Positions 17,476 to 40,425 of a stretch of DNA of 64,000 bases are shown here, piece after piece. Location of the stretch: IMG/VR virus record IMGVR_UViG_3300025849_000016, positions 1 through 64,000 of that record. One strand, 5' to 3'. The notes beneath the pieces were generated by a model. It made no database searches. It was not told the origin of the DNA and was given only the letters and a program-made list of their open reading frames with translations. This stretch comes from a virus. The stretch's first letter is position 1, and the number at the start of each line of letters is the position of its first letter. Made by a program: the position numbers and the translations under genes.

Positions 17476-17919
17476 ATGAAAACAAATATAGTATGTAGTG
17501 GAGCACTTTTCTTTTCTAAAGAAACTGAACGATTTTTACTGTTGCATAGAGCAAATGGTAAAAAAAATAACCTTTGGGGATTAGTCGGCGGCGGCAATGA
17601 AGAAGGCGAAACTCCGTTTGAAGGTTTAAAACGAGAAATTATTGAAGAAATAGGAAGTATGCCGCCTATTAAAAAAACTATTCCTCTTGAAAGTTTTGTA
17701 AGCAATGATGAAAAATTTCATTTTCACACATATTTGTGCTTAGTAGAGCAAGAATTTATACCTATTTTAAATAATGAACATAACGGTTATGCATGGGTTT
17801 CTTTCGGTATGTGGCCAAAACCTCTCCATCATGGACTTAAAAATACCCTTCAAAGTAAAGTAAATCAGACAAAATTGCGCACAGTTTTTCAAGTAATATC
17901 TTTACTTGACGAAATTTAA
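17476..17919 (+). CDS. NUDIX hydrolase
   Basis: Nudix box GGGNEEGETPFEGLKREIIEEIG; LNNEH..YAW. Confidence 0.9.
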   Translation: MKTNIVCSGALFFSKETERFLLLHRANGKKNNLWGLVGGGNEEGETPFEGLKREIIEEIGSMPPIKKTIPLESFVSNDEKFHFHTYLCLVEQEFIPILNNEHNGYAWVSFGMWPKPLHHGLKNTLQSKVNQTKLRTVFQVISLLDEI

Positions 17920-17934
17920 AAAGAATGTTATAAT
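17906..17934 (+). promoter_or_regulatory. Sigma70-type promoter, probably leaderless hldE mRNA
   Basis: TTGACG-17 nt-TATAAT with extended -10 TGn; ATG starts 6 nt after the -10; no RBS. Confidence 0.75.
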
Positions 17935-17939
17935 AAGTT

Positions 17940-19097
17940 ATGAAAGTTCTAGTTATAGGCGATATTATAATTGACAAATACATCTATGGATCAAGCCATC
18001 GCTTGAGTCCGGAAGCACCTGTGCCTGTAGTTGCACAAGATCGTATAGAAGAATCTATTGGTGGTGCAGGACTTGTTTATAAAAATTTAAAAAGTCTAGG
18101 CGTAGATGTTGATCTAGTTGATATTTTTGACAAAGTTAGCGTAAAAACTAGAGTAATTTGTGACGGTCATTATGTCACACGCATAGATGACGATTATTAT
18201 GCAGACGGAGAACAGTTTCTTCAGTATATTTTAACACAAGATTTTAGTGATTACGACTATGTAATATTAAGTGATTACAACAAAGGCGTGTTAACCAAAT
18301 CTTTAAAAATCATCGAACATATTAACCAGTTTAATTGTCGTGTGATTGTAGATCCTAAAGATCATGCAACACATTATGAAGGTGCTTGGTTAGTAAAACC
18401 TAACGAAAAAGAATTTCAAGAATACTTCCTTAACTGGCAGGGTAATATTATTACTACTCGAGCAGGTAAAAGTGTTATTGCTAAAATAGATAATGAAGTT
18501 TATGAAGTAGCTGTAGACAATGTCGAAGTTAGTGATGTAACCGGCGCCGGCGACTGTTTCTTGGCTGCATTTGTTTATGCCCTTACAAAAGATTACAATT
18601 ATAAAAAAGCAATCGAACTTGCTGTACAAGGATCAACAGAAAGCGTTAAGCATGTTGGTACATACATTCTTACAGAAAAAGATCTAAAGAAAAAAGTAGT
18701 GTTTACCAATGGGTGTTTTGATGTACTACATAAAGGACACCTTACACTGCTTAAACAAGCCCGTAGCTTAGGTGATAAACTTGTAGTAGGACTAAACAGC
18801 GATACTAGTGTAGCACGACTTAAAGGTGCTAATAGACCATTTAATGATGTTAATACACGTAAAGAACAACTAGAACTTATTCCATATGTAGACCAAGTAG
18901 TAGTATTTGAAGAAGATACTCCTTACAATCTAATTAAGGAATTACAGCCAGATTTAATTGTCAAAGGCGGAGATTATACTGTAGAAGAAATAGTAGGACA
19001 CGATCTAGCACCAGTACATATTGTTCCTACTGTACAGGGTCATAGTACCACAAGAATTTTAGGAGATTTAGATGAAAATATTAATCACGGGGTATAA
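17940..19097 (+). CDS. hldE: Bifunctional heptose 7-phosphate kinase / heptose 1-phosphate adenylyltransferase
   Basis: VIGD..IDKYIYG...RLSPEAPVPV, LSDYNKG, VDPK, KPNEKE, DVTGAGD (PfkB); FTNGCFDVLHKGH, GLNSD.SV.RLKG..RP, LIVKGGDY, STT (nucleotidyltransferase). Confidence 0.93.
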   Translation: MKVLVIGDIIIDKYIYGSSHRLSPEAPVPVVAQDRIEESIGGAGLVYKNLKSLGVDVDLVDIFDKVSVKTRVICDGHYVTRIDDDYYADGEQFLQYILTQDFSDYDYVILSDYNKGVLTKSLKIIEHINQFNCRVIVDPKDHATHYEGAWLVKPNEKEFQEYFLNWQGNIITTRAGKSVIAKIDNEVYEVAVDNVEVSDVTGAGDCFLAAFVYALTKDYNYKKAIELAVQGSTESVKHVGTYILTEKDLKKKVVFTNGCFDVLHKGHLTLLKQARSLGDKLVVGLNSDTSVARLKGANRPFNDVNTRKEQLELIPYVDQVVVFEEDTPYNLIKELQPDLIVKGGDYTVEEIVGHDLAPVHIVPTVQGHSTTRILGDLDENINHGV

Positions 19098-19902
19098 AGG
19101 TTTTATAGCCCAAAATTTAGGTAGATATTTACACAGCAAAGGTCACGAAGTAGAAGGATTTGACTGGATACCAAATACTCTTCCTGCTGTTGATTTTTAT
19201 GATCAAATTATTCATCTTGGTGCTATTAGTGAAACAACATGTACTGATGTTGAAGCAGTAATGGATCAAAATTTAGACTTTTCAACAAGATTGTTAGGAT
19301 TATGCGAAGCGCATGGAACTAATTTAATGTATGCATCTAGTGCTAGTGTATATGGTCCTTTAAAAAATTGTAAAGAAACTGCACCGTGTTTACCTAAATC
19401 ACCGTATGCCTGGTCAAAATATCTTTTTGATCGTGTTGTAACTTCAGCTGATATTAGTAGTTTTGGATGTAGAGTGCAAGGATTTAGATATTTTAACGTA
19501 TTCGGCGAATACGAAGACCACAAAGGACCTCAGGCTAGTATTTTTCATCAATTTCGTAAACAAGCATTAGGTGGGTGCATTAAACCTTTTGTAAATTCTG
19601 ATAATTACTACCGAGATTTTATATATGTTGGCGATATTTGCAAAATTACCGAAAAATTCTTAGATATTGACGAGAGTGGTGTATGGAATGTAGGTAGCGG
19701 TCATGCAGAAAGTATTGGCGCGGTGGCAAAATTCATGGCCGAACGCATGAATGTACCTATAGAAGAGGTAGAAATGCCAACATCACTACTTGGTCAGTAT
19801 CAAGAATACACATGTAGTGATAATACTAAACTTTTAAACACAATTGGGGACTTTAAGTTCACTACACCTTATGAATGGATGGAAAATGGCAACAAGACTT
19901 GA
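19072..19902 (+). CDS. hldD: ADP-L-glycero-D-manno-heptose 6-epimerase (SDR family)
   Basis: ITGYKGFIA, HLGAIS.T, YASSASVYG, YAWSK, GFRYFNVFG..EDHKG..AS, RDFIYV; overlaps hldE. Confidence 0.88.
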   Translation: MKILITGYKGFIAQNLGRYLHSKGHEVEGFDWIPNTLPAVDFYDQIIHLGAISETTCTDVEAVMDQNLDFSTRLLGLCEAHGTNLMYASSASVYGPLKNCKETAPCLPKSPYAWSKYLFDRVVTSADISSFGCRVQGFRYFNVFGEYEDHKGPQASIFHQFRKQALGGCIKPFVNSDNYYRDFIYVGDICKITEKFLDIDESGVWNVGSGHAESIGAVAKFMAERMNVPIEEVEMPTSLLGQYQEYTCSDNTKLLNTIGDFKFTTPYEWMENGNKT

Positions 19903-20284
19903 AGGAAAAATAGATAAAGGTTGGGGATTTGAAATAATCTGGGCAACAAATGACAAATATTGCGGTAAAATTATGGTTTTTGAGAAAGTTGGTGCAAAGT
20001 TCTCTATGCACTTTCATCGAGAAAAGGACGAAACATGGTTTGTTAATAATGGCCGCTTTATTGTTCGCTGGATTGACACAAAAACTGCAAAAATGAATAT
20101 GCAAGAGTTAAAAGAAGGCGATACTTGGCATAATCCACCGTTGCAGCCACATCAATTAGAATGTATTCAAGCAGGAAGCTCGATTACCGAAGTTTCTACA
20201 GCCGATTCAGTTGAAGATAATTATAGAGTTTTTCCAGGAGATAGCCAAACAACTATGCCTGAGCCTCTCCCCACTTTAGAATAA
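19886..20284 (+). CDS. Cupin, sugar(-phosphate) isomerase-like
   Basis: KGWGFE, YCGK, SMHFH..KDETW, PHQL, EVST..S.EDNYRV.PGDSQ metal-cupin motifs; start at MATRLEG overlapping hldD. Confidence 0.8.
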   Translation: MATRLEGKIDKGWGFEIIWATNDKYCGKIMVFEKVGAKFSMHFHREKDETWFVNNGRFIVRWIDTKTAKMNMQELKEGDTWHNPPLQPHQLECIQAGSSITEVSTADSVEDNYRVFPGDSQTTMPEPLPTLE

Positions 20285-27626: not shown

Positions 27627-28589
27627 TTATGTTCCTAAAGCAATTGCTAATGCAGTAACGTTTTCGTCTACATACCGTTTGTTTGCTATACCGGTAGTTG
27701 TTGTTGGAGCTTGTGTAACAGATGCAGTTGTAAATACAGCAGATCCAGGAGTAGTTGCACCAATATTTATGCTATCTAATGTACCCGAGGTAGCACTTAA
27801 GGACGTAAAAGCTCCGGCTGCTGGTATATTATTTCCTATCGATATATTGTTTAATGACCCGGTTGTACCGCTATCTATCGTTGTTATTCCTGATCCTCTA
27901 GCAATTAAATTTATATTATTGTTTTGCGGTCTTAAATCAATTAATCCGGCTGTTGAAGTAATTGCTGGTGCTGTGATCGATAACCCTGTTATGCTTCCTG
28001 AATTAGCAGAAATAATTACTGATCCTAAATCACTTGGCTGCAATCTAATATTAGCATTTGATCCTAATGCATTTATATTTCCTGCTACTGTTAGTGTATT
28101 AAATGATCCGTTACCTGTTATAACTGGATCCGAAATAGAAATCATACCGTATGGAGCGCCAGACGAATTTGTGTATCTTAGTTCTGAAGGAGCATCAATC
28201 GGAACATCAAATGTAACAATACCAGTATTTTTTCCTTGAGCTGAACTACCTGTAACTGTTACATTTTCTGTGCTTGTATGACTTAACCCTGTACTATAAA
28301 ATGACGAGCCGTCGCCGTTAGCTACATTAAAAGTTAAAGCCGATAATGATAAATTTATAGTATATCGTGTGCCTCTTAATAATGCAATCTGAGGATTATC
28401 AGGATCATTTGATGTTTCTCTAAACTGACCTGCACCTGATTCCGAAAATGAAAAATCCGTTTCAGTTTGGTCTTCAGCTGCGATAGTAAAAGAAAGAGAC
28501 CGAGCAGTAATGTTACCCTGGTCGTCTACAATAAATCCTGTACTTTTAAAACCATATTCTGATTCAAACGGGTTATAAGTTATTGGCAT
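27627..28589 (-). CDS. Virion/fibre-associated protein with ligand-less cupredoxin-like domain
   Basis: NPQIALLRGTRYTI...FDVPIDAPSELRY; G.INN..IG...P.AG.FT.L fibre repeats; ANKRYVD; C-terminal ALAIALG; GATAAATA at 28606-28613. Confidence 0.6.
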   Translation of the reverse strand: MPITYNPFESEYGFKSTGFIVDDQGNITARSLSFTIAAEDQTETDFSFSESGAGQFRETSNDPDNPQIALLRGTRYTINLSLSALTFNVANGDGSSFYSTGLSHTSTENVTVTGSSAQGKNTGIVTFDVPIDAPSELRYTNSSGAPYGMISISDPVITGNGSFNTLTVAGNINALGSNANIRLQPSDLGSVIISANSGSITGLSITAPAITSTAGLIDLRPQNNNINLIARGSGITTIDSGTTGSLNNISIGNNIPAAGAFTSLSATSGTLDSINIGATTPGSAVFTTASVTQAPTTTTGIANKRYVDENVTALAIALGT

Positions 28590-28615
28590 TCAATACTCCT
28601 TACAGTATTTATCTT

Positions 28616-29026
28616 TTAGTAAGGAACCAATAAATTTTGATTTTGAAAATAAAATGCATTATATACTAATTTGCTATTTTTATTATCGTCTGATGTAGGT
28701 GATGCTTTTAAACTGACATATGAATCATTTACAGTAGCACTTAGATTTACAATATCGTTTCCTAAATTAGAACGTCCAAAAACTGATAGTGTTGCTTTGT
28801 CTAATGATGCTACTACTAAAACTTTAATTATTTCTTTTTGAGTAGTATTTAAATCTATAAAAATTGTATATTCGGCGGCTGTAAAATCACCTAGATAAAA
28901 TCTATCAAATTCAGTTTCTTGCGGAATTGATACCCAAGGACCAGTTCGACTTAATTGTGTATCGTTTTTTAGACTTATAGTATTTTTTCTACCAACCTGT
29001 AAATACTTGTCAATAAATATTGCCAT
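28616..29026 (-). CDS. Small beta-rich virion structural protein
   Basis: 136 aa, D.F....F.AAEY.I...KEI..VLVVA...FG pattern; AAGGAG RBS; AATAAATA at 29049-29056. Confidence 0.5.
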   Translation of the reverse strand: MAIFIDKYLQVGRKNTISLKNDTQLSRTGPWVSIPQETEFDRFYLGDFTAAEYTIFIDLNTTQKEIIKVLVVASLDKATLSVFGRSNLGNDIVNLSATVNDSYVSLKASPTSDDNKNSKLVYNAFYFQNQNLLVPY

Positions 29027-29051: not shown

Positions 29052-30836
29052 TTATTCACTAGTACAAGTAATCAATGTTTTATATTCTGGTAGATAAAGA
29101 TAGTTAATTTTACTTTTACTTAATGTCCATAATGCATCTTCGAGTGTTTCAACTAGTGGCTCGCCACCTAAATTAAAACTAGTATTAAAGATAATTGGAC
29201 ACCCTGTAGCGTCTTTAAATGCTTTTATAAGGTTGTAATAATTTTCATTTTGCTCTCTGTTTACAGTTTGTATACGACAAGTGCCATCTACATGAATGAT
29301 AGCAGGAATCTTTTCTTCGACGCCTGGCTGACAGTTTACCGCATACATCATTGTAGGCGAACTTTCCATGCCACGTAAGTCAAACCATTCGTGTACATCT
29401 TCTTCTAGTATACTACCTGCAAATGGACGGAAGTATTCCCTATGCTTTACACTATTAACAAAGTCTTTACCATTAGGGTCAGTTGGATCGTATAAAATAC
29501 TTCTATTACCCAATGCACGTGGACCATTTTCACTTTTACCTTGAAATATGCTTACAATATTTTTATCTGTAATTAACTTTATAACATCTTCGTTAGTTGC
29601 TGATTGTACTGTAGCATTATATTTAGATGCTATTTTATTAATATCATCAGATGAATATTGATAAGAGAATCCTTCATAAAGTGTTTCTTTTCTTTCACGC
29701 ACATTAGTATCTCTACTAATGTTATACCATTGTAATAGTGCAGCACCCATTGCTGTACCGCTATCATTAGATACAGGCTCTACATATATTTCTATATCTT
29801 TATCTAAATTATCTAAGTAATAATAATTTGCAACACAATTTAGTCCGTAGCCTCCACTAATAACAACTTTATTTTGTCCAGTCATTTCTACTGCTTTGTG
29901 AATTAATTTTAAAACTTGTTCTTGTGTTTGTGTTTGCACTGCATATGCAAGATCTCTTCTATTTTGCAATAATGTTAAATCTTGACCTTCTTCGCCGCTA
30001 TCAGATAATTCTAGATAAACATCTTTATTTATATATGCACCATTTGGATAAGTAGGAATAATTAAATTTCTATTGCTCACATCACCGTAGGCAGTTTCAT
30101 GAAATAATGATGGAATGTTATTGTTAGGTTTACCATAAGGAAATAATCCCATAGTTTTACCTGCTTCGATAAAATTCCAACCACAGTATTCTGTTACTGC
30201 TTCGTATGTTTTTGTAATTCCGGCTTTTTCAAATACATAGGCTTCGTGAGATTCGTTGTCATTAAATATTCCGCCATCAATATTAGTTGCAAATTTTTCA
30301 ACAGTCGGGCCTGTAGTTCCTATGTTTTTTCTAATTGTTTGTATATTGTTAGGATACGAACAATTAAAAATTGTTTCAACTTCCCAAACTACATTATCTC
30401 CCATATTAATAAATGTACCTGCACCGTCGACTACTACGCCTGCTGCTGTATCAAATCCGCTACGATAAAATGCACACGCAGCATGTAATTTATGATGATA
30501 AGAACTCATATCTATTACTTGAGGATGGTCAAACGGATTTTCTTTCCTACTAATTAACCCTAGTTTTCTAGCAAGCCCAGTGTATACATCATCACCACTA
30601 AAATCTATTCTTGATGCTTCTGCTAATGGTTGGGTATGTGCAATAACTAGATAGTCTATTTTATCTGTATATTCTAATATTTTATACATTCCTGCAAAAG
30701 GGCCGCCGTCATATTTTTGACGGCTTAGTCTTTCTTCTTCTATATTAAATATCACTTCGCCGTCTTTTAAAAGACATACACTACTATTATGTCCTCTAGC
30801 AATAGCTGCAATCCAAATAGAATCTGTTTTAATCAT
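29052..30836 (-). CDS. O-carbamoyltransferase, NodU/CmcH/TobZ family
   Basis: HNSS, EEERLSRQKYD, HHKLHAA, VVDGAG, GKTMGL.PYG, GGYGLNCVAN, NDSG, ENGPRALGNRSI, VKHREYFRPFA, HVDGTCRIQTV, NTSFN..GEP. Confidence 0.95.
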   Translation of the reverse strand: MIKTDSIWIAAIARGHNSSVCLLKDGEVIFNIEEERLSRQKYDGGPFAGMYKILEYTDKIDYLVIAHTQPLAEASRIDFSGDDVYTGLARKLGLISRKENPFDHPQVIDMSSYHHKLHAACAFYRSGFDTAAGVVVDGAGTFINMGDNVVWEVETIFNCSYPNNIQTIRKNIGTTGPTVEKFATNIDGGIFNDNESHEAYVFEKAGITKTYEAVTEYCGWNFIEAGKTMGLFPYGKPNNNIPSLFHETAYGDVSNRNLIIPTYPNGAYINKDVYLELSDSGEEGQDLTLLQNRRDLAYAVQTQTQEQVLKLIHKAVEMTGQNKVVISGGYGLNCVANYYYLDNLDKDIEIYVEPVSNDSGTAMGAALLQWYNISRDTNVRERKETLYEGFSYQYSSDDINKIASKYNATVQSATNEDVIKLITDKNIVSIFQGKSENGPRALGNRSILYDPTDPNGKDFVNSVKHREYFRPFAGSILEEDVHEWFDLRGMESSPTMMYAVNCQPGVEEKIPAIIHVDGTCRIQTVNREQNENYYNLIKAFKDATGCPIIFNTSFNLGGEPLVETLEDALWTLSKSKINYLYLPEYKTLITCTSE

Positions 30837-31807
30837 TATGCTGCATCCTTAACAACCGGTTTACCGTTCCATTTTTTTTGATTTTTAATACACGATTCAA
30901 CAATAACATTTTCTATTTTCTCATTCATACGCATAATACCTTCATTCATTCTATCTGTATATTCATCTACAGTTATACGAATTGGACTGTAAATTTTAAC
31001 ATCATCGCCCATATCTAATATATCAAAATATTTACAATTAGGGTAACTAACATTAATGTCAAATGTACTTCCTAATACTATTGTTGTCGGAACATTAAGT
31101 GCGTATGATAAATGCTGACCGACACTATCGCACCCTAAAAAATAATCAGATTGGTTAATTATAGCAGCCCATTCTCTTAAAGATGCACCTTGAGGGATTG
31201 CAATAGGTTCCTTAATATCATATTCGTCAAACTGTATACCTATTTCAGACATAAACACTACAGCGAATTTTTTTGAAAGTTGTTTAACAATGCTTATAAC
31301 AGACTCAGGTTCAAAGCTTCGTCCAGTAGGATCTATAATCATACCTTCTTCATTATGAATTCCTCTGCCAAATGGTTGGAATACTATTATCTTATCTTTT
31401 TTTGTTTTTTCTTTTATTTCTTTTATAAGTTTTTGAGCAAATACAGTTTCTTGTTTTCCCAAATATATTTTAGGTTGAGGCAAGTCTCTTAAACCTTTTT
31501 TATTAATTTCTATATCATATGCTTGGCCAATGCTACATTTTTGATTATAGTATTCCCATACTCTGTACGGTTCAGGACTTAATAAATTCATATCTTTTAA
31601 TTTATCTTCAAATAAATTTTTATGCCATGTATCGTATGCACGTTTATGTAGTGAAGGATGCCCTTTGTAAAAATCAGTGCCTCCTTCACATACTATGATA
31701 AAATCATCATTTGGATTTTCTTTTTCAAATAATTCTAATGCAGGTATACTAGTAATTACTCTACCAGCGCCACCGTTTATAAAAATTGCTGTATTTCTGT
31801 TGGACAT
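30836..31807 (-). CDS. GT-B glycosyltransferase, GT9 (heptosyltransferase)-like
   Basis: C-terminal LREWAAII..SDYFLGCDSVGQHLSYALNVPTTIVLGST matches the GT9 signature; P.IYL and IVFQPFG; N-terminal GGAGRVITSIPAL; TAATG-coupled to the carbamoyltransferase. Confidence 0.75.
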   Translation of the reverse strand: MSNRNTAIFINGGAGRVITSIPALELFEKENPNDDFIIVCEGGTDFYKGHPSLHKRAYDTWHKNLFEDKLKDMNLLSPEPYRVWEYYNQKCSIGQAYDIEINKKGLRDLPQPKIYLGKQETVFAQKLIKEIKEKTKKDKIIVFQPFGRGIHNEEGMIIDPTGRSFEPESVISIVKQLSKKFAVVFMSEIGIQFDEYDIKEPIAIPQGASLREWAAIINQSDYFLGCDSVGQHLSYALNVPTTIVLGSTFDINVSYPNCKYFDILDMGDDVKIYSPIRITVDEYTDRMNEGIMRMNEKIENVIVESCIKNQKKWNGKPVVKDAA

Positions 31808-31846
31808 AAAAATACCTCCCTATGAATTATTTATAGAGAGGTATTT
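31808..31846 (-). promoter_or_regulatory. Hairpin enclosing a perfect T4 late promoter TATAAATA and pairing the RBS of the GT9 gene
   Basis: Minus strand AAATACCTC-TCTATAAATAATTCATAGG-GAGGTATTT-TT-ATG; promoter at 31828-31835. Confidence 0.7.
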
Positions 31847-31865
31847 AAGATTAGTTTAAAAGTGG

Positions 31866-32525
31866 TTACTCTGGGTCCGGAAGTTCATTTCCTGGAGTAA
31901 TTTCATCATTAGGATTTTCAGGAACTGTAGGAAATCTAACCTCCCAAGGTTCATAATCTGCCCAAGTTGTAGTAAGATTTCTTAATGCTGTTCTATATTC
32001 TTCCCATGGACTTTTAATTGCATCCGGAATATCTTCTCTAACTCTTGCATCAGACCATACTAATAATCCATCTCTCGATGCTCTAATATCATCCCATGTT
32101 TTTAAATCACGTTCCCAAACATAAGACCAAGTTTTAGTAGCAGCATCATACGATACCCCTTCATTACGATACACTTCATGTGGCGGTAATGGATCGTAAT
32201 CTCTAAGAGAAGTACCATCTGGTAATTCCCAAGATCTCGTCGGTGCGTTGCCGTCAAAGTCTGTAGCTATTAATGTTGCTACTAAAGGATCAACAGTTGG
32301 GTCAACTTCTACTTTTATTTCAGTAGGTACAGGATTAAATGTTTCACCATCTGTTTCTACTGTTAAATAATTTCTTGGTTCTAAAGTACCGTCTAGACTA
32401 TCAACAAATACCCATAATCTATCTGGACCTGTATAAGTCCACGATGCATTAGTATAATTTTCTAAATTAGGCTCACCGCGTTTGTTAGGTGTTTTATAGC
32501 TAAAATTTACACTTATTGTTGTCAT
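31866..32525 (-). CDS. Tail fibre assembly chaperone-like protein (paralogue 1)
   Basis: C-terminal WDDIRASRDGLL.WSD....D.P.....WEEYRTALRNL...FP..P (phage tail assembly chaperone motif); YTGPDRLWVFVD shared with 34054-34704. Confidence 0.8.
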   Translation of the reverse strand: MTTISVNFSYKTPNKRGEPNLENYTNASWTYTGPDRLWVFVDSLDGTLEPRNYLTVETDGETFNPVPTEIKVEVDPTVDPLVATLIATDFDGNAPTRSWELPDGTSLRDYDPLPPHEVYRNEGVSYDAATKTWSYVWERDLKTWDDIRASRDGLLVWSDARVREDIPDAIKSPWEEYRTALRNLTTTWADYEPWEVRFPTVPENPNDEITPGNELPDPE

Positions 32526-32533
32526 TACTAATC

Positions 32534-33277
32534 CTATCTAAATATTAAATATACTTGGCCGCCGGCGCCCGGTGTTCCACATTGGCTAGTACAACCGCCT
32601 TGTGTATGCGATGTCATACCACCTCCGCCTGGAAATGTTCCGAAGTAACATCCTGCGCCATATCTATTCATACAGCAACCATTTTCAAACATACGTGTAT
32701 GTCCTGTCATTGCAGGTCCTGGATTAACTTCATATGTGTGCTGATAACACCAATTGTTACCGAACACATATGATAAATTTCTTGGATGTATGGTACTAGT
32801 TACTCCGGTACCGGCAACATTGCCGCCTGTTTCTTGACAAACACGCTGACATGTGTAGCAATTGAACCCATTACATTGCCAGTAGCCATGACATCCGCCA
32901 CATGCTATAACACACCATGCACCAGGTTTACAAACATATGAGTTGTTGCCATTTTCGCAACTACTGTAGCTTCTACAACATGTTGAACCAGCTGCGCATA
33001 TAGTAACACTATCACCAGCTGAAACCGGTGCATGAAATTCTACATAACCACCTGGACTGCCACCGCAACCATATGTACAACAATAGCCACCTGCGCCAGC
33101 GCCGCCGCCTGCCCAAACTTCTCCACTTACGCCTTTAACACCAGTCGGAACTGTAAAAAGACAGCAAAAGCCGCCATTATTACCTGTATCAATGTTAGTG
33201 TTAAACACTGTTATTTCTGTAGGAGTCTGTGCGCCACCTGCATCGTATCCGTATAAATATTCTCTTAAATTAGCCAT
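32534..33277 (-). CDS. Cys-rich (23 Cys) glycine-rich-domain fibre/adhesin-like protein A
   Basis: NNGGFCCLFTVP.GV...EVWAGGGAG ... GTPGAGGQVYLIF; AAGGA RBS. Confidence 0.65.
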   Translation of the reverse strand: MANLREYLYGYDAGGAQTPTEITVFNTNIDTGNNGGFCCLFTVPTGVKGVSGEVWAGGGAGAGGYCCTYGCGGSPGGYVEFHAPVSAGDSVTICAAGSTCCRSYSSCENGNNSYVCKPGAWCVIACGGCHGYWQCNGFNCYTCQRVCQETGGNVAGTGVTSTIHPRNLSYVFGNNWCYQHTYEVNPGPAMTGHTRMFENGCCMNRYGAGCYFGTFPGGGGMTSHTQGGCTSQCGTPGAGGQVYLIFR

Positions 33278-33286
33278 TTTACATCC

Positions 33287-34036
33287 TTACTCTGAAGCAA
33301 CATACAATAATTGTACCATACCTGAACCGCCGGGAGCACCACAGTATGTACCGCTTGAACTATTACCACTCATGCCACCATGTCCTGGATAAGGTACACA
33401 GTTCCCCATAAATGCTAACCCGTGACAGTTTGCACAACCAGTCGTACTCCATATTCCTGTTGTGTGTGCATACGGTGCTCCAGGAGCAAACTGTTTAAAG
33501 TTACACTTACCGCCATATGTCCATTTTCCGTGTCCTTGTACAGGACGTATACATAATGTTGCACCAAGTATACAACCTGTTTGGCAGTTATTTAATGAAT
33601 TGCCGCATTGACAGTTGCCGTAACTGAGTGTACAACCTCCACTGCCGCCGCTTACACACAGACAGCAAGTGCTTGCTTTACACATATAAGATCCAAATCC
33701 GGTACACCCACAACATGAACTTAGACAACATGTAGTACCGCCTGCACATATAGTCCAATTGTCACCTGGAGTTACATCAAATATTTTTCTTCCGTATGCA
33801 CCTGGTCCACCGCTTCTGCCTGCGTGACAATTAGGTGCTCCAGCGCCAGAGCCGCCGCCGCCCCAGGCTTCAACACCTATCCATGTAACGTTGTCAGGCA
33901 CTGTCCATAAACAACATCTGCCGCCGTTATTTACTGCTGATGGACTACTTGCAAGTATTCGTGTAACAGTCATAGTTCCGTTAGTAGGTACATCCCCGCC
34001 GCTGCCAAATTCTAGTAATGTTCTTAAACCTGCCAT
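33287..34036 (-). CDS. Cys-rich (24 Cys) glycine-rich-domain fibre/adhesin-like protein B
   Basis: NNGGRCCLWTVP.NV...EAWGGGGSG ... GAPGGSGMVQLLY; AAGGA RBS. Confidence 0.65.
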   Translation of the reverse strand: MAGLRTLLEFGSGGDVPTNGTMTVTRILASSPSAVNNGGRCCLWTVPDNVTWIGVEAWGGGGSGAGAPNCHAGRSGGPGAYGRKIFDVTPGDNWTICAGGTTCCLSSCCGCTGFGSYMCKASTCCLCVSGGSGGCTLSYGNCQCGNSLNNCQTGCILGATLCIRPVQGHGKWTYGGKCNFKQFAPGAPYAHTTGIWSTTGCANCHGLAFMGNCVPYPGHGGMSGNSSSGTYCGAPGGSGMVQLLYVASE

Positions 34037-34053
34037 TTTAAATCCTTAAATAA

Positions 34054-34704
34054 TTATGCTGAGTTTTCTGGTGATTCAGGAAATACTACTTTATGCGGAT
34101 CAACTCCTGCCCACTGTGTTGGTAATGCTCTTAGTGCTGTTCTATAAGCTACCCACGTTGCTTTTAAAGCAGATGGCATATCTTCAGCCATCATATTATC
34201 TGATCCTTCTAAAGCAGAATTTCTTGCTGCACGTAACAGATCCCAAGTAAATTCTGATTCTTTAAAACTATACGTCCACGCTCCGTCTGCATAACGCACT
34301 GTTTCAGGATCAATTATTTCTTCTGGATTTTGAGGCCAGTCGTAGCTATATGTTGCTGTAGTGTCATCGGCTAATGTAATTGTTTCAGATACTGTTTCTC
34401 TTGCAGTTTGTTGTGTATATCCGCTAATATCTAATAAAGATGCTATTACTGGATCGTCATTAGAGTTTACAATTACCTTTACAGCACCACCTGGTGTGCC
34501 TATATCTGCTCCGTCGTTTTCGTCTGTTAATGTCGGCCACATGCCTTGTGATAGTATTCCTGTTGTTTCGTCTACAAATACATACCATTTATCTGGTCCT
34601 GTATAAGTTGCATTAACTGTTACATTGTTGCTAGTAGATGTGCTATATTGCTCATCTGGAGCAGTAAATGTAAATGCTTTAGTTATGATATTATTGTTTG
34701 GCAT
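34054..34704 (-). CDS. Tail fibre assembly chaperone-like protein (paralogue 2)
   Basis: WDLLRAARNSALEGSD...EDMP.....WVAYRTALRALP...FPESP. Confidence 0.8.
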   Translation of the reverse strand: MPNNNIITKAFTFTAPDEQYSTSTSNNVTVNATYTGPDKWYVFVDETTGILSQGMWPTLTDENDGADIGTPGGAVKVIVNSNDDPVIASLLDISGYTQQTARETVSETITLADDTTATYSYDWPQNPEEIIDPETVRYADGAWTYSFKESEFTWDLLRAARNSALEGSDNMMAEDMPSALKATWVAYRTALRALPTQWAGVDPHKVVFPESPENSA

Positions 34705-34715
34705 TTTTTCTTTCC

Positions 34716-35447
34716 TTATGCAAATGACACTCTAATTACTCCGCCCATTCCTGGAGTACCACAACGGCAAACTCCTGAACATGTTATAGCGTTTGATCCA
34801 GGACCTGCTGGAAAGTGTCCGTATCCAAAGCAGCAAGCATTACAATATGTTGTATTCAGGCAAGTTGATCTTGTAGCATTAAAAGTACCTAATTGATAAG
34901 CACCTCCCATGATCCATTTTTGTGTGTTCATACAACTTCCTTCTGAATGAGTTGTGCCTCTGATTCCCGGCATACACCAGTCACCAGCTGTCTGTTTACA
35001 CACAACACATCCAGAACAGCAAGTAGGTACAGCTAATGTAAAACACGATGTTCTACCTGGTTCACCAGATGGTGCGCATGTTGTTGCTATTCCTGATCCT
35101 GATACAAATGTAGTTTGTCCAGCTGAGCCGCCGCAGCTACTTTGACAACACCCGCTACCTGCTGCACAAAGCGTATATGTACAGCCTGCTTGTGTTGTTA
35201 CAGTACGCATTGCATACATACCGCCTGATCCTGTATATACCGGAGCTTGACAACATCTTGCTGCTGGGCCATCAGCTCCTGATCCCCATAATTCAAATGT
35301 TACTTGTGTTACTCCGTCTGGCACAGTCCATAAGCAACACCGACCACCATTGGTAACGCCCCTAGTGTCGTTTGATATTACTATACTATTGACCCCGGGG
35401 TTAGTTTGTGGAGCTAGATCTGATTTTAAACTGCTTAAACTTGCCAT
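34716..35447 (-). CDS. Cys-rich (24 Cys) glycine-rich-domain fibre/adhesin-like protein C
   Basis: TNGGRCCLWTVPDGV...ELWGSG ... GTPGMGGVIRVSF; AGGA RBS. Confidence 0.65.
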   Translation of the reverse strand: MASLSSLKSDLAPQTNPGVNSIVISNDTRGVTNGGRCCLWTVPDGVTQVTFELWGSGADGPAARCCQAPVYTGSGGMYAMRTVTTQAGCTYTLCAAGSGCCQSSCGGSAGQTTFVSGSGIATTCAPSGEPGRTSCFTLAVPTCCSGCVVCKQTAGDWCMPGIRGTTHSEGSCMNTQKWIMGGAYQLGTFNATRSTCLNTTYCNACCFGYGHFPAGPGSNAITCSGVCRCGTPGMGGVIRVSFA

Positions 35448-35462
35448 TGTATTTTCCTAAAA

Positions 35463-35795
35463 TTACGATCCTGCTAAGACCCATCCATATGTTGCGCCAC
35501 TATATACTAATGTAGCTGAACTATTTCCGATATCTAATGCTAAATCTTCAGCTAACCCGTGTATGTTATGCCCGTTTCTTGCTAATGTACAATTGTTAGT
35601 ACCAAAGTTTCCAGCAACATCAATAAATTGAATAGTATCATTTATTAGTGTTGTTGCTGTACTCGGTAGTGTAACTGTAACTGCTACTGACGAAGTGTCA
35701 ATAAGTAGACGTTCATTTGCTACTGCGGTTGTGTTTCCGGATATTGCACGTACTGTAGTGCTTGCCGAACCTGTTGTTGTAATGTATCTTGCCAT
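35463..35795 (-). CDS. Single-domain fibre connector protein (T4 gp34/gp9-like repeat domain)
   Basis: IDTSS..VTVTLP...DTIQFIDVAGNFGTNNCTLARNG.NI.G..EDL.LD...LVY...YGW; GATAAATA at 35815-35822. Confidence 0.65.
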   Translation of the reverse strand: MARYITTTGSASTTVRAISGNTTAVANERLLIDTSSVAVTVTLPSTATTLINDTIQFIDVAGNFGTNNCTLARNGHNIHGLAEDLALDIGNSSATLVYSGATYGWVLAGS

Positions 35796-35820
35796 TTCTA
35801 TTCCTTACTACATGTATTTA

Positions 35821-36147
35821 TCAAGATGAAGGTAATGGTGTTTCAACACCAAATCCCACTGCACTTACGTTAGCTGAGTTTGCACGTACAACTAACTTTT
35901 GGGCAGCACCCAATGCAATGCCCGTTCTCTCCAAAACTCCTTTTGGAGGTATTTCTGTTTCATACTCTATATACTCGCTTGCTGTAGGCACGTCTGCGTC
36001 TGAAACAGATAATCTAATTGTTATAGTTTGGTTTCCTCTGTTACAAAACGATACACTAGCAATAGTAAATGTCTGTGCTGGCACAGTATATAGTGTTGTG
36101 TCTGTTGAAGCGCTTAAATCGTTTGCGCCTAATCTTCCCGATGCCAT
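35821..36147 (-). CDS. Small beta-sandwich virion protein (similar to 59077-59406)
   Basis: 108 aa, TLYTVP...CNR...IPPKGVLERTGI; AAGGA RBS. Confidence 0.6.
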   Translation of the reverse strand: MASGRLGANDLSASTDTTLYTVPAQTFTIASVSFCNRGNQTITIRLSVSDADVPTASEYIEYETEIPPKGVLERTGIALGAAQKLVVRANSANVSAVGFGVETPLPSS

Positions 36148-36162
36148 ATTTCTTTCCTTTAT

Positions 36163-39100
36163 CTATGCGTTTAAAAAGTACTGTAACGCTAATGGTGTTC
36201 CAGATACCCCTTGGGCGAAGTTTGTTGTTGCTCCTACAATAATTGTAGAATTATCAGTTGTGGAAATAGTATTTCCTGTAATTTGTATATTACCTGCAAT
36301 TAAAGTATTAACATTTAGAGTAGCACCACCGCCACCAATTTGTGCATTAATATACGTTCTAATAGCTCGTTGTGTTGGAACAATATTATCACTATCAGCT
36401 GCAAAAGTACCGTCGGTACTAAATTCTCTAATTGTAGCACTTGTTCCGCCTAAGCTAACACTACCAAGTTGTAGTTCTTGTAGTCCGCTAACACTAAAGT
36501 TATCAGCATCTAGTGTAGCAGTACCTGTTGCTTGTTCAACTGTAAATAAGTCACCAACTCTAAAGTTACCATCTTGGTCAGTTGATGTATAGAACACTCG
36601 ACCTCCGCCATTTTCTTTAATTTCGTTTTGTGAGTTAGGACTATTGCTCGGTATTCCTGGATAATTAGTTTCTGTAAAATTTCCTGTACCAATATCTAGG
36701 AAGTCATGACCTGTTAATCGCACCTGTGAGTAGCGTATTCTTAATGTTACTTGCGCAGCGTGTGCTGGTTCTAAATCTACTTCAATATCTGGACTTACTT
36801 GTAATCTAGCAGCATACGGCCCAGATCCTGTAAGTTCAAAAACTTCGACAAGTTTATAAATTGTTGGATCGCCTGCAATTTGTACATTTGATCCTGGAAG
36901 AGGTTCTTCTATTGATCCTTCTACATATAGATACTTACCACTTTGTTTAACATCAGCATAACCGTCGCCGTCGATTGATGTACTACAAGATTCATAACCT
37001 GTTCCTCGATTACTAAATGTCGGAGCAGTCAAAACACCGTCGCCTATTCTAACTTCAAGTGGAGCATCTACAGTATTAATTGGATCAGTAATTGTTACTG
37101 TTGGTGGATTAATTGGATCGTATCCTGATCCAGTTTCAAATAAAGATATTTGAAATATTTTTCCGCTTGCAACTTTTACTCTACCTCTTGCAGTTGTTCC
37201 AGATACTGGATCACCAATAACTATCCTAGGTTCGACTTTGTATTGAGATGTTTGGTCTAATGTAGTTTCGATTGCTGTTCCGGGCACAAGATGATCCCAT
37301 CCGCTTGAATCGTCACTCATTTTCTTAATTGTTGCAAGTTTTGTACCAGCATTGTACGTATCAATATATCCATATTGTCCTACGCCTAAACCGTCTTCTA
37401 TATATACTGCCATGCCAATATAATCTGAACTATTAGCTGTATCTGTTGCTGATAAATTTATTGTAGTACTTGTACCTGCTTGAGCATTATTAATTGATGT
37501 TTGATAATCTTCGCCCCCATATTGTCCAGCAGTGTTTAATAATCTAATTTCAAAAATGCCGCCATCATTTACATTTACAGTACCTACCGCAGCATCAATG
37601 CCCTCACCAATAAATGTATAAGTTGCAGTTGTATATGATACACCAGCATTTGCATATTCTAATGCTAATACTCGATCACCATCTGTGATTGTATTTGCTA
37701 TAATTGCTTCAGCATAATAGTTATTAACTGTACTTGTATTTGGAGTTTCTGTTGAATCAATACCTTCAGCAACTGATCCAAAGTCTCCGTAAGAGTTGTT
37801 ACCATTTGTAGCACGAATCTTACCACCGTCTTCTGCTAGGTAACCAATATGGTTATAGTATGTAAACACACTAACAAGTTCTGATCTACCTAAGTTTGTA
37901 ACCCAGTAACCGATACCGTCACTTAAAATTTGTGTAAAGTCGTTAGCAACAATACTGTCGTTTCCGCCGTCATGTAATGCACCGTCAACTTTTAATCCAA
38001 TGCACCCGTTGCCAAATGTTGATACATTTTGAATATATGGTGATTTACTATGTATCCATGCTAACCTATCTGTTGAGTCTTCGCCTGGGTCTAATGATAC
38101 ATACGCACCAGCAGTCGGACGACTAGTTCCATATGAATTTGCTCCAGTTAGTGTACCATTTAGTCCAGAAAGAGAAACATTTCTTATACCACAGCCGTTA
38201 CGTACATAAAACATGTTTGATGTTTCAAAACCTGTGTCTGGTTTAATTCTAACTGAACGTAGTTCGTCACCTACAAGTGCAGTATGTGCAGGTATTGATA
38301 TAGGTAATGTTTCTAAATATTCACCTGTTTTAATAAACACTGTTGTATTTACAACTTGTTCTGCAGGTAAACTATTTAAATTACCAGCAGTAATTGAAGC
38401 TGTAATAAGTCCTACTAACGTATCATAAGTTGCTTCTGCATCTGCTTCTTCTGTTTTAGTGCCATCAATTGTTTGTGTGACAGGTGTTACAACACTGTTT
38501 TCAGTTTGATAGTTTGTAGCCGGAGCAACATTACTTAACACTGCATCAACAACTTCTAAACTATAATTTATAGATGCTACTGTTTCAGTTTCTTGTCCGG
38601 TGATATAACTTGCACCTGCTTCGGTAAAATATGATTGTGCTGTTTTTCTTGTTTCAACATTTCCGCCATGTGATATATCATATCCTACTGCTTTTACAAT
38701 CTTTTTCATATCACGTAAGCACAGAGCTTTATCATATGTAAATCCGCCTGTAAATGGTGCAATAGCATTTGCAATTTGATAATCAGTCCATTCAACAACT
38801 TCTGCAGCAATAAAATCTATGTTTGCATCTAATAATGCCTTTGCATTATGACGCTGTGTTGACTGTAAAATATAGTCCATGCAATATTTTACAGTTAAAA
38901 ACGGTCTATCTAAAGTAGTTCCGTAACCAGATGCATTAACTCCGCTTGGTGAAACATAAAATACATTATTTACAAAACCAAAGTCAATCCATTCCGGTGC
39001 AGTAGCAGAAGAGTTAACAGCTAAAACTTGCCCTGGAGATCCGATAGGTAATCTAGCTGGACCAGATCCTGCAAAATAAAGTATGTCGCCGTCAGTAGTT

Positions 39101-40425
39101 AATGAATTTTCTTCAGCAGTTGCACTTACAATATTCCAATATGTACCTAATGTGTCTAAATCTGGTCTGTTTGAAGCATCATCTGCTGTATGTGCTAACA
39201 TGCATATATATGCATTGTTACTATAACTAACAACATCACCTAAAGCATAAGTTGATGCATCTGTCCAAGTAGCTTGCCAAGAAAATCCTTCATTAAGTTT
39301 ATCCCAATAACTTACGTTAGGCGGAGTATTTGCTGTGTTATCTGCATTACATACATATGTATATCCGTTTAATCTTACTACATCTCCAACTTTATATGCT
39401 GTAACATTAGACCAATCACCTTGTAAATTAAAACCAGTTATAAAAAGATCCCAGTCAGTAGGGGAAGTTGAAGGAACAGAATTACTATGATCTGTTTTAG
39501 AAATATATGTATAACCACCATATGTTACAATATCACCTGGTTGATAAGTTGTACTGTTACTCCAAGTGTCTTCAAATTCTAAACCAGGTAAATAAACATT
39601 CCAATTAGAAGTATCTGAAGCAAAAGTTGATGTTGAAGTATGTTCGGCAATTGAAATATATAAGCTCGGACCGTTTTTAACGATGTCGTTAACTGTGTAT
39701 CTTGTAGATGGTGCCCAATTTGCCCTATAGTTAGTGCCATCATATAATAGATTCCAATTTAATATGTCTGTTTCTAATCCGTCTGCATCTGTAGCTGTCG
39801 AAGTGTGACCAGTTGCACAAAAATAGATTCTTCCAAAATAGTTTACAATATCATAATTTTTATATCTAGTACTTGTTGACCAATTGCCTTTCCAAGATAG
39901 CCCTTCAGAAAATAGATTCCATGATACTTGATCTAATTCTAATCCATCAACAACAGTTGCCGCACTAGTATGTGCTGTTTGACATATGTAAGTAGCTGTT
40001 CCATATTTTACAATATCATTAACTTTATATTTGGTATTTGTGCTCCAAGCACCTGCATAGTTTAGTCCTTCAGCAAACAAATCCCAATTTGCAATATTAC
40101 CTTCAAGACCCACTAACGCATCGGCATTAGATGTATGTCCTGTGTTACATATATACAAGAAGCCGCCGTTTTTAACAATGTCATTTACTTTATAATATGT
40201 TGCAACAGCCCAAGCGCCGCGCCAAGCTAATCCGTCACCAAATTGTTCCCATTTAGGTTGTACATCATTAAGATCTGTTTCTAAATCAGCTTGTGAAGTA
40301 TGTGCAAGAATTGCAATAAATGTTTTACCGCCGTAAGACACAATGTCGTCGCGGACATATTGAGTACCTGTGGTCCAAGTACCTTTCCAGATAAATCTGA
40401 TTCTACCAAGTTTAAATTCGGCCAT
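36163..40425 (-). CDS. Large tail spike/fibre-like protein: 8 Trp-rich CBM5/12-like repeats, beta-helix-like core, conserved C-terminal domain
   Basis: WxGxW...Y..xDIV..GG..Y.C...HTS x8; YVSPSG..PFLTVK, VGDELR, SPYIQN, ANDFTQI; LTGHDFLDIG, TSTDQDGNFRVG; GATAAATA at 40461-40468. Confidence 0.75.
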   Translation of the reverse strand: MAEFKLGRIRFIWKGTWTTGTQYVRDDIVSYGGKTFIAILAHTSQADLETDLNDVQPKWEQFGDGLAWRGAWAVATYYKVNDIVKNGGFLYICNTGHTSNADALVGLEGNIANWDLFAEGLNYAGAWSTNTKYKVNDIVKYGTATYICQTAHTSAATVVDGLELDQVSWNLFSEGLSWKGNWSTSTRYKNYDIVNYFGRIYFCATGHTSTATDADGLETDILNWNLLYDGTNYRANWAPSTRYTVNDIVKNGPSLYISIAEHTSTSTFASDTSNWNVYLPGLEFEDTWSNSTTYQPGDIVTYGGYTYISKTDHSNSVPSTSPTDWDLFITGFNLQGDWSNVTAYKVGDVVRLNGYTYVCNADNTANTPPNVSYWDKLNEGFSWQATWTDASTYALGDVVSYSNNAYICMLAHTADDASNRPDLDTLGTYWNIVSATAEENSLTTDGDILYFAGSGPARLPIGSPGQVLAVNSSATAPEWIDFGFVNNVFYVSPSGVNASGYGTTLDRPFLTVKYCMDYILQSTQRHNAKALLDANIDFIAAEVVEWTDYQIANAIAPFTGGFTYDKALCLRDMKKIVKAVGYDISHGGNVETRKTAQSYFTEAGASYITGQETETVASINYSLEVVDAVLSNVAPATNYQTENSVVTPVTQTIDGTKTEEADAEATYDTLVGLITASITAGNLNSLPAEQVVNTTVFIKTGEYLETLPISIPAHTALVGDELRSVRIKPDTGFETSNMFYVRNGCGIRNVSLSGLNGTLTGANSYGTSRPTAGAYVSLDPGEDSTDRLAWIHSKSPYIQNVSTFGNGCIGLKVDGALHDGGNDSIVANDFTQILSDGIGYWVTNLGRSELVSVFTYYNHIGYLAEDGGKIRATNGNNSYGDFGSVAEGIDSTETPNTSTVNNYYAEAIIANTITDGDRVLALEYANAGVSYTTATYTFIGEGIDAAVGTVNVNDGGIFEIRLLNTAGQYGGEDYQTSINNAQAGTSTTINLSATDTANSSDYIGMAVYIEDGLGVGQYGYIDTYNAGTKLATIKKMSDDSSGWDHLVPGTAIETTLDQTSQYKVEPRIVIGDPVSGTTARGRVKVASGKIFQISLFETGSGYDPINPPTVTITDPINTVDAPLEVRIGDGVLTAPTFSNRGTGYESCSTSIDGDGYADVKQSGKYLYVEGSIEEPLPGSNVQIAGDPTIYKLVEVFELTGSGPYAARLQVSPDIEVDLEPAHAAQVTLRIRYSQVRLTGHDFLDIGTGNFTETNYPGIPSNSPNSQNEIKENGGGRVFYTSTDQDGNFRVGDLFTVEQATGTATLDADNFSVSGLQELQLGSVSLGGTSATIREFSTDGTFAADSDNIVPTQRAIRTYINAQIGGGGATLNVNTLIAGNIQITGNTISTTDNSTIIVGATTNFAQGVSGTPLALQYFLNA

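Follow-up and report, generated by a model that had tools for sequence, protein, structure and literature searches.

The window analysed here is a stretch of 64,000 nucleotides (nt) from a 106.7-kilobase (kb) IMG/VR virus record (IMGVR_UViG_3300025849_000016) that is 31% complete and whose proteins match those of T4-like cyanomyoviruses of the family Kyanoviridae; a search of a phage collection found no near-identical DNA among deposited phages. Our subject is a run of fibre and enzyme genes at positions 29052-35795, every one of which lies on the minus strand in the same orientation. In the order of transcription, a long tail fibre of 1420 amino acids (aa) is followed by a 108-aa protein, a 110-aa connector, Cys-rich protein A, chaperone A, Cys-rich proteins B and C, chaperone B, a 323-aa transferase, a 594-aa carbamoyltransferase, and then 136-aa, 320-aa and 2456-aa fibre-like proteins (Table 1). 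A sequence-only reading of this DNA had described a co-oriented run with a connector, three Cys-loaded paralogues, two chaperones, the transferase and the carbamoyltransferase, and gene calls and domain searches confirmed this arrangement. The block 29052-40425 is best explained as the tip module of the long tail fibre in a T4-like cyanomyovirus, together with a dedicated late pair of glycan-modifying enzymes.

Table 1. Features of the fibre and enzyme block and of the heptose genes in the window, with the evidence for each.
Feature	Position	Strand	Evidence
Long tail-fibre protein, 1420 aa, heads the block	36163..40425	-	tblastn matches (E to 7e-75) in S-SSM7, S-CAM1 and P-SSM2 to proteins annotated as tail fibre; ATAAATA 42 nt upstream
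Small fibre-associated protein, 108 aa	35821..36147	-	PHROG tail fibre protein E 2e-11; 43-47% identity to the small proteins that follow the fibre gene in S-CAM1 and P-SSM2
T4-type late promoter motif GATAAATAC	35815..35821	-	26 nt before connector gene
Fibre connector/adaptor domain protein, 110 aa	35463..35795	-	T4_gp9_10_N E 4e-5, 24.2 bits (cut-off 25, just missed); PHROG tail/tail-spike families E to 2e-17
Cys-rich fibre-tip protein A (predicted), 243 aa, 24 Cys, 38 Gly	34716..35447	-	AlphaFold2 and Foldseek; PHROG 4205 E 9e-29
Tail-fibre assembly chaperone A, 216 aa	34054..34704	-	Pfam Phage_tail_APC (PF16778) E 7e-12, 45.4 bits; PHROG tail fibre assembly
Cys-rich fibre-tip protein B (predicted), 249 aa, 24 Cys	33287..34036	-	Paralogue of A (alignment); Pfam Gly_rich_2 E 0.0035, below cut-off
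Cys-rich fibre-tip protein C (predicted), 247 aa, 23 Cys	32534..33277	-	Paralogue of A (alignment); PHROG 4205 E 6.5e-11
Tail-fibre assembly chaperone B, 219 aa	31866..32525	-	Phage_tail_APC 22.1 bits (cut-off 26.6, not reached); paralogue of chaperone A; PHROG tail fibre assembly E 3e-8
Perfect T4 late promoter TATAAATA	31828..31835	-	27 nt before transferase ATG; GGGAGG follows
Putative GT9-fold glycosyltransferase, 323 aa, Arg16 at position of WaaC Asp13	30836..31807	-	AlphaFold2/Foldseek fold, family profile, motif alignment
O-carbamoyltransferase, NodU/TobZ/GdmN family, 594 aa	29052..30836	-	Pfam Carbam_trans_N E 2e-25, 90.3 bits, then Carbam_trans_C E 2e-59, 200.2 bits, both above threshold; PHROG Nol-like E 9e-169
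HldE-like heptose-7-phosphate kinase and heptose-1-phosphate adenylyltransferase, fused, 385 aa	17940..19097	+	PfkB and CTP_transf_like; NCBIfam HldE E 8e-83, rfaE domains I and II; under equivalog cut-off
HldD-like ADP-heptose 6-epimerase, 276 aa	19072..19902	+	Pfam Epimerase E 3e-30; TIGR02197 heptose_epim E 2e-58, under cut-off
Cupin, 146 aa	19844..20284	+	Cupin_2 E 2e-6; PHROG 'cysteine dioxygenase' E 1e-33; adjoins gmhA in P-SSM2, S-SSM7 and S-CAM1

The three Cys-rich proteins are paralogues of about 245 aa, as had been claimed, and their Cys counts were confirmed. The AlphaFold2 model of protein A (predicted local distance difference test score, pLDDT, 81.5) consists of an N-terminal helix, a beta-sandwich and a glycine-rich domain, and Foldseek matched it to the cyanophage Pam3 fibre (7ypx_A, E 1.3e-6, template-modelling score (TM) 0.56), the Bxb1 tail tip and the glycine-rich domain of ALK/LTK. 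The Cys-rich proteins did not reach the threshold of Pfam Gly_rich_2, for which only protein B scored (17.8 bits against a cut-off of 24.3). Since the model of protein A matches the Pam3 fibre, proteins A, B and C are predicted to be fibre-tip adhesins of a known fold, which are unusual by their content of about 10% cysteine. The Pam3 fibre is similar to the S16 adhesin gp38, and a disulfide links it to the baseplate (PMC9942802). Disulfide bonding is an ordinary explanation for such a high Cys content, and the purposes that had been proposed for a decorated tip, namely receptor mimicry and shielding against proteases or oxidation, found no support. Only six Cys columns are at least 90% conserved in the family alignment. 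Exactly three Cys-rich genes occur in 60 of 80 related IMG/VR loci (L007-L086), which were found through the transferase, and this count raises the question of a heterotrimeric tip versus three separate adhesins.

The genes around these proteins also belong to a tail fibre. The assignment of two tail-assembly chaperones stood for chaperone A at the Pfam cut-off, while chaperone B fell under that cut-off but matched the PHROG tail fibre assembly family. The fibre-connector domain was proposed from a T4_gp9_10_N match that is weak and under its cut-off, but PHROG tail families and homology of the 110-aa protein to the C-terminal 90 residues of the S-SSM7 long fibre (tblastn) support it, and the match to this end of the fibre fits a connector role.

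We then examined the transferase. Against the Pfam GT9 model (PF01075) it scored 11.8 bits (E 0.15) with a cut-off of 22, and the earlier label 'GT9-like' therefore failed at the level of the Pfam model but held at the level of the fold. Its AlphaFold2 model (pLDDT 95.8) has a GT-B fold with two Rossmann domains, and the best Foldseek matches were all GT9 proteins, namely 3tov (E 1e-12, TM 0.70), WaaC, TibC (E 3e-9) and WaaF; the model also matched the GT9-like subunit of plant NDH-PSI complexes. When we searched with a profile of 61 family members, the four top PDB sequences were those of WaaF and WaaC, at weak significance (E 0.05-0.14) and with the alignment restricted to the D-S-x-G-x-H motif, and hhalign of the family with WaaC aligned the C-terminal motif alone (Prob 38%). 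By hmmsearch and hhalign, the invariant D227-S-x-G-x-H232 aligns with the motif D-x-G-x-x-H (D261/H266) of the ADP-heptose site of WaaC, and the donor-site residues Q144, D159, R163, D227, S228 and H232 are invariant across the 61 diverse members. Some relatives score above the Pfam GT9 cut-off, P0267 with 24.9, P0231 with 22.7 and the second transferase gene of L047 with 25.2 bits. Based on the fold matches and on these family members, we suggest that the 323-aa protein is a divergent GT9-fold enzyme whose donor site appears intact.

The acceptor side is different. The loop G-R-V-x4-P-A-L of the transferase has a spacing identical to that of G-D13-V-x4-P-A-L in WaaC, with Arg in place of the catalytic Asp. 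Arg occupies this position in 76 of 78 representatives and Lys in the other two, and Arg is also found in a distant Aeromonas homologue and in other remote members. The equivalence of Arg16 and Asp13 was taken from motif spacing and a weak HMMER alignment, not from superposition, and it rests on the spacing because hhalign aligned only the C-terminal motif. Moreover, the acceptor-side N-domain has a median isoelectric point of 5.9 in the family, compared with 10.0 in WaaC and 9.7 in WaaF.

The transferase family comprises 421 clusters at 50% identity and is almost confined to phage DNA. A motif scan of 185,579 species genomes gave six matches, all on contigs of metagenome-assembled genomes (MAGs); five of the six contigs carry a phage fibre module, and the sixth begins at the transferase, with the upstream side absent. 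The contigs that carry the fibre-plus-enzyme module (L208, L210, L211 and L209/L212) were binned as Woesearchaeota, Polynucleobacter, Flavobacterium psychrophilum and Neomarinimicrobiota MAGs, and they are probably mis-binned phage DNA.

The transferase stop codon overlaps the ATG of the carbamoyltransferase as TAATG. The translational coupling of the transferase to a NodU/CmcH-type carbamoyltransferase, which had been proposed from this overlap, was confirmed together with both Pfam domains. The closest structures are 7xb6 (E 1.7e-50), GdmN, TobZ and NovN, with E-values from 1e-41 to 1e-50. Against the NCBIfam NodU model the protein scored 142.9 bits (E 1.5e-41) with an equivalog cut-off of 1000, indicating a member of the family and not NodU itself.

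The promoter motifs give the timing of this pair. The window contains 17 copies of ATAAATA on its minus strand, and 12 of these are followed after 11-42 nt by a start codon on that strand, so that the motif marks almost nothing but gene starts; those at 40425, 35795, 31807, 29026 and 28589 are among the starts preceded by it. The exact sequence TATAAATA is strongly under-represented, with 3 copies in the 64 kb compared with 12.9 expected. Of 79 relatives, 46 have [ACT]TAAATA in the 80 nt that precede the enzyme pair, compared with about 3% expected. These motifs at gene starts in the window and in relatives indicate that the enzyme pair is a late unit between late fibre genes, and from the promoter motifs the transferase and carbamoyltransferase form their own late transcription unit, not a read-through of the fibre operon. 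Thus, the claim of a run under late promoters was borne out by the motifs before 35795, 31807 and 29026, but that of a direct continuation of the fibre operon into the enzymes was not, as the pair has its own TATAAATA. A scan for sigma-70 promoters and terminators in the window gave counts equal to those of shuffled sequences. Metatranscriptome contigs from salt marsh (three studies, 95-99% identical) cover much of 31.8-40.5 kb and the transferase sparsely, where contigs cannot rank genes, DNA carry-over is possible and gaps prove nothing. The 136-aa and 320-aa genes downstream (27627-29026) each have their own late motif and are kept downstream of the enzyme pair in most relatives, and the 320-aa protein consists of 26% Ser and Thr.

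Genes for a possible sugar donor are present in the window as well. The HldE-like and HldD-like genes lie about 10 kb from the enzyme pair on the opposite strand. In P-SSM2, S-SSM7 and S-CAM1, the heptose genes, a cupin gene and gmhA directly follow the carbamoyltransferase, and the same is seen in about 20 IMG/VR loci; in more divergent contigs, GmhB-like HAD or HldD-like genes follow it. The check proposed in the sequence-only reading, whether hldE and hldD accompany the enzymes, thus had a positive outcome, with both types in the window and adjoining the pair in relatives. Because of these two observations, a heptose-type nucleotide sugar is the likely donor, and from gene content ADP-heptose is likely to be that of the GT9-fold enzyme. 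The 106-kb record, 31% complete, contains no match for gmhA and no GmhB was seen either, so that the full four-activity ADP-heptose pathway was not found there. In the region 17476-20284, the cupin is supported by Pfam as a generic cupin only, with a weak match to the WbuC family, and it adjoins gmhA in P-SSM2, S-SSM7, S-CAM1 and about 15 loci. We set aside the cupin as a replacement for GmhA, since gmhA and the cupin stand side by side in relatives. The PHROG label 'cysteine dioxygenase' of this protein coincides with the presence of Cys-rich fibre proteins.

We next asked how the enzymes and the Cys-rich proteins are distributed across phages, using the forward set of 80 loci described above and a reverse set obtained by a DNA motif scan for the CCLWTVP coding motif. 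In the forward set, a carbamoyltransferase lies within 3 kb of the transferase in 80/80 loci, and Cys-rich open reading frames (ORFs) were found in 34/34 loci with at least 9 kb on both sides of the transferase; in the 12 loci without such ORFs the DNA ends on the relevant side. The reverse scan gave 76 Cys-rich contexts, and both enzymes were present in all 21 of those with at least 6 kb downstream. The linkage is kept in three gene orders, including one with a convergent inverted fibre block. Six species among the isolates (S-CAM1, S-CAM3, S-SSM7/6a, Sf-FS3, P-SSM2 and P-SSM5) have the Cys-rich proteins, and it is these same six that have the transferase and the orthologous carbamoyltransferase. 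Co-occurrence of the enzymes with the NGGxCCLWTVP proteins, which had been put forward as a test, was therefore observed in both directions.

The association reaches beyond close relatives. On divergent contigs from groundwater, freshwater and a sulfidic cave, where the transferase is 38-43% identical, a Cys/Gly-rich protein is encoded immediately upstream of the transferase and the carbamoyltransferase follows; these proteins have 269 aa, 591 aa with 9% Cys, and 1257 aa with 10% Cys. In Aeromonas phage HJ05 (OQ594355.1, 37770-40385; L213/L214), a 26%-identical homologue of the Arg type lies directly after a 559-aa protein with 23 Cys (4.1%), the most Cys-rich annotated coding sequence of its genome (median 0.8%), and no carbamoyltransferase was found at this homologue. 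The distant homologues in Vibrio and Aeromonas phages lie inside virion modules. Taken together, gene neighbourhoods make a functional tie between the enzymes and the Cys-rich fibre proteins likely.

Several relatives carry additional genes at this place. Between the transferase and the carbamoyltransferase, many have one or two paralogous genes of about 300 aa (L013:10944-12745, L026:11008-12831, L009:10930-11778) that are absent from the window. This family gave no match in Pfam, PHROG or PDB, and Atlas gave only DUF6071-like viral clusters. By eye it shows SGNH-like motifs (FGCSYT, GxGN, DxxHPS) that would be in keeping with a sugar O-acyl esterase or transferase; the family was also considered as a relative of the transferase and rejected, since hhalign showed the two to be unrelated. 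In the metagenomic protein P0231 (558 aa), a GT8 domain (E 3e-12) is naturally fused to a GT9 domain of the Arg type. A second GT9 gene is present in locus L047, and a second carbamoyltransferase in L052. The extra genes of about 300 aa, the second GT9 and the second carbamoyltransferase suggest a variable, multiply modified glycan, and the glycan of relatives is probably larger than one sugar.

Based on these observations, we tentatively suggest that the phage glycosylates its own fibre-tip proteins, a proposal to which we give slightly less than an even chance. The Cys-rich proteins would be adhesins of the Pam3 gp24 and S16 gp38 type, with an N-terminal attachment helix, a tumour necrosis factor (TNF)-like sandwich and a glycine-rich domain, which the two Tfa-type chaperones would fold and the 110-aa connector would dock. 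Late in infection, the HldE- and HldD-like enzymes of the phage would provide ADP-heptose, the GT9-fold enzyme would transfer the heptose onto one or more fibre-tip proteins in the cytoplasm, and the coupled TobZ/NodU-type enzyme would then O-carbamoylate that heptose; in relatives, the further modifying genes would add to it. The sequence-only reading had reached much the same interpretation, and its supports in co-occurrence, hld genes and a late promoter were upheld, while heptose and carbamoyl groups on the fibre are deduced from gene order, timing and enzyme features. The lipopolysaccharide (LPS) of marine Synechococcus WH8102 and CC9311 is without heptose and without Kdo (3-deoxy-D-manno-octulosonate) (PMC4515613). 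We favour fibre glycosylation because of the late timing, the phage-restricted family, the acceptor domain unlike that of LPS enzymes, this heptose- and Kdo-free host LPS, and a precedent in mycobacteriophages. Freeman and colleagues (2023, Cell Host Microbe; cited in PMC12801897) reportedly described that mycobacteriophages have glycosyltransferase genes next to those for structural proteins and that the enzymes attach sugars to capsid and tail proteins. Enzymes of the bacterial autotransporter heptosyltransferase (BAHT) type, such as TibC, heptosylate adhesins.

Here, we need to consider several points that weigh against this proposal. First, with Arg in place of the catalytic Asp, the protein could be inactive or act differently. 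Second, the cyanophage loci all come from a single viral lineage whose synteny is conserved, so that their counts are not independent events, and accessory genes are known to accumulate in the fibre region of cyanomyoviruses. Third, the Cys-rich neighbour in HJ05 was not significantly related to the Cys-rich family by hhalign, the glycine-rich ends being a resemblance by eye only, and the neighbour of the homologue in Vibrio phage K479 is a tail-tip protein that is mildly Cys-enriched, ranking 5th of 37. Fourth, S-CAM8 (L206, NC_021530.1, 23519-41090) has a paralogous carbamoyltransferase, 40% identical, between a cluster of 2-oxoglutarate (2OG)-Fe(II) oxygenases and the fibre block, and the proteins of that block are not Cys-rich, one being 30% glycine with almost no Cys. 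Fifth, S-SM2 carries heptose genes (Sullivan 2010, PMC3037559), and we found no match there for the transferase or the Cys-rich proteins, so phage ADP-heptose has at least one other use. In addition, our control genome, Synechococcus elongatus, has a GT9 gene, and cyanobacteria are therefore not devoid of GT9 acceptors. Finally, the assignment of the acceptor rests on context, and an adhesin co-inherited with an enzyme that masks its receptor would be expected to look identical.

A more specific form of fibre glycosylation is quite improbable in our view. The Arg-variant GT9 enzymes would be phage-specific protein heptosyltransferases acting on Cys thiols of glycine-rich adhesins, giving an S-linked heptose that is then O-carbamoylated, and host recognition by widespread marine and freshwater phages would depend on a new fibre-tip glycan. 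The data are compatible with it because Arg replaces the general base throughout the family and the enzyme tracks Cys-rich fibre proteins across deep divergence, including HJ05.

The enzyme pair could instead modify the host envelope, adding carbamoyl-heptose to a host surface glycan late in infection, and it could mask the receptor of these same adhesins, sparing progeny from binding to debris and infected cells; the linkage would then reflect an adhesin co-inherited with a receptor-masking enzyme, and give the same neighbourhood signal. We consider modification of the host envelope a serious alternative, although rather unlikely. Where the acceptor of a GT9 enzyme is known, the enzyme mostly belongs to the LPS core, and the LPS core of Pseudomonas contains 7-O-carbamoyl-heptose. 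The name ADP-heptose:LPS heptosyltransferase was given to some homologues by the Joint Genome Institute (JGI), and one family member is fused to GT8 while others stand beside extra transferases, as in glycan-building clusters. The literature labels these as genes for LPS biosynthesis or cell-surface modification (PMC3037559, PMC12801897). However, heptose and Kdo, which usually serve as acceptors of GT9 enzymes, are missing from the LPS of marine Synechococcus, the acceptor-side domain does not share the basic character of that in WaaC and WaaF, and another residue stands in for the catalytic Asp. With a late promoter within the fibre block, there would also be little time to build and export a surface glycan, and the distant homologues of Vibrio and Aeromonas phages stand within virion modules too.

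It is also conceivable, but unlikely, that the enzymes have no functional link to the fibre. The enzymes and the heptose genes would then be accessory cargo of a hypervariable fibre region and would act on another substrate, such as a small molecule, a storage polysaccharide or exopolysaccharide, or another part of the virion, for example the 136-aa, 320-aa or 2456-aa protein. Cyanophage fibre regions do gather 2OG-Fe(II) oxygenases, carbamoyltransferase paralogues and other accessory genes, many cyanophages have carbamoyltransferase paralogues and no Cys-rich proteins, and the 136-aa and 320-aa genes, too, follow the enzyme pair in most loci. What argues against mere cargo is that a Cys/Gly-rich neighbour persists down to 38-43% transferase identity, in differing fibre architectures and in an inverted block, and that the three components co-occur exactly among isolates.

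Loss of the catalytic Asp would also fit a GT9-fold protein that is non-catalytic and serves the fibre tip as a nucleotide-sugar-binding or structural assembly factor, for which the GT9-like NDH-PSI subunit of plant chloroplasts matched by Foldseek would be a parallel case. Given the invariant donor-site residues, the tight coupling to the carbamoyltransferase and the ADP-heptose genes, and the members above the Pfam GT9 cut-off, we regard this as very improbable in spite of the Arg or Lys found in all representatives. Modification of DNA, in which a hydroxymethylated base would be heptosylated, with or without carbamoylation, as a defence against restriction, is hardly credible. GT-B enzymes of phage T4 glycosylate DNA, and we know of no GT9 enzyme that acts on DNA. 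A recent cyanophage paper suggests that glycosyltransferases may serve in such modification (PMC12801897), but the late promoter and the position among fibre genes are wrong for such an enzyme, and no thymidylate-synthase-like hydroxymethylase was found in the 106-kb record, which is weak evidence as the record is 31% complete.

When we compared the locus with known systems, the closest was the 'LPS gene' cluster of P-SSM2, S-SSM7 and S-CAM1 (T4-GC 299-308; Sullivan 2005, 2010), which is an orthologous module with the same order of long fibre, two small proteins, Cys-rich proteins with a chaperone, GT9-fold gene, carbamoyltransferase and heptose genes. Identity to these phages is 46-54% for the GT9-fold gene and 50-62% for the Nol-like carbamoyltransferase. 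Unlike that cluster, the window has its heptose genes 10 kb off on the other strand, a fused kinase/adenylyltransferase and no detected gmhA. The Cys-rich proteins and the transferase of the P-SSM2-type cluster are annotated only as hypothetical, and the published reading of the cluster is host LPS or 'stuffer DNA' of function not known (PMC3037559); a 2025 paper still discusses these as LPS genes of unknown use (PMC12801897).

Other systems share single components. The Cys-rich proteins have the size (about 250 aa) and the N-terminal helix, sandwich and glycine-rich lattice of Pam3 gp24 and S16 gp38 (PMC9942802); unlike Pam3 gp24, which has a single Cys per chain for the baseplate disulfide, they contain about 10% cysteine and usually come as three paralogues in a row with dedicated Tfa-type chaperones. 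The transferase shares its fold and donor-site motif with WaaC and WaaF, but differs from them in its score below the Pfam GT9 threshold, the change of Asp13 to Arg, an N-domain that is acidic to neutral instead of basic, and a host LPS without the usual acceptor. The LPS core of Pseudomonas provides a chemical precedent for a heptosyltransferase paired with a carbamoyltransferase of the NodU type. With TibC/AAH, which use ADP-heptose and a cytoplasmic adhesin protein as acceptor, the transferase has a GT9-type fold in common. It has no match to TibC at the sequence level, and TibC keeps the catalytic Asp and is an iron-containing dodecamer (PDB title), whereas the transferase has Arg. In the mycobacteriophage system, transferase genes likewise lie beside structural genes, and their products reportedly modify the phage's own virion proteins in the cytoplasm, but the system differs in transferase families, sugars and targets (capsid and tail tube) and has no carbamoyltransferase and no phage-made nucleotide-heptose.

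The genes themselves are already known, having been in GenBank since P-SSM2 and standing as unexplained 'LPS genes' since 2005, and a literature search found no paper proposing fibre heptosylation. What is new is the deep linkage with Cys-rich adhesins in both directions, the fold assignment of both partners and the family-wide Arg at the base position. Since cultured isolates exist (P-SSM2, S-SSM7, S-CAM1 and Sf-FS3), fibre glycosylation can be tested directly. Should the host glycan be the target, the locus would clearly exemplify the joint inheritance of an adhesin and an enzyme masking the receptor of this adhesin. If the phage glycosylates its own fibre tips, this would be a new variant of virion glycosylation, in viruses that are among the most abundant in the sea, and the transferase would represent a new GT9 branch whose active site is non-canonical and whose acceptor is a protein. 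Some of what is counted as 'auxiliary metabolic gene' load in cyanomyoviruses would then belong to virion morphogenesis, and host range could depend on a post-translational glycan that is invisible to sequence-based host prediction.

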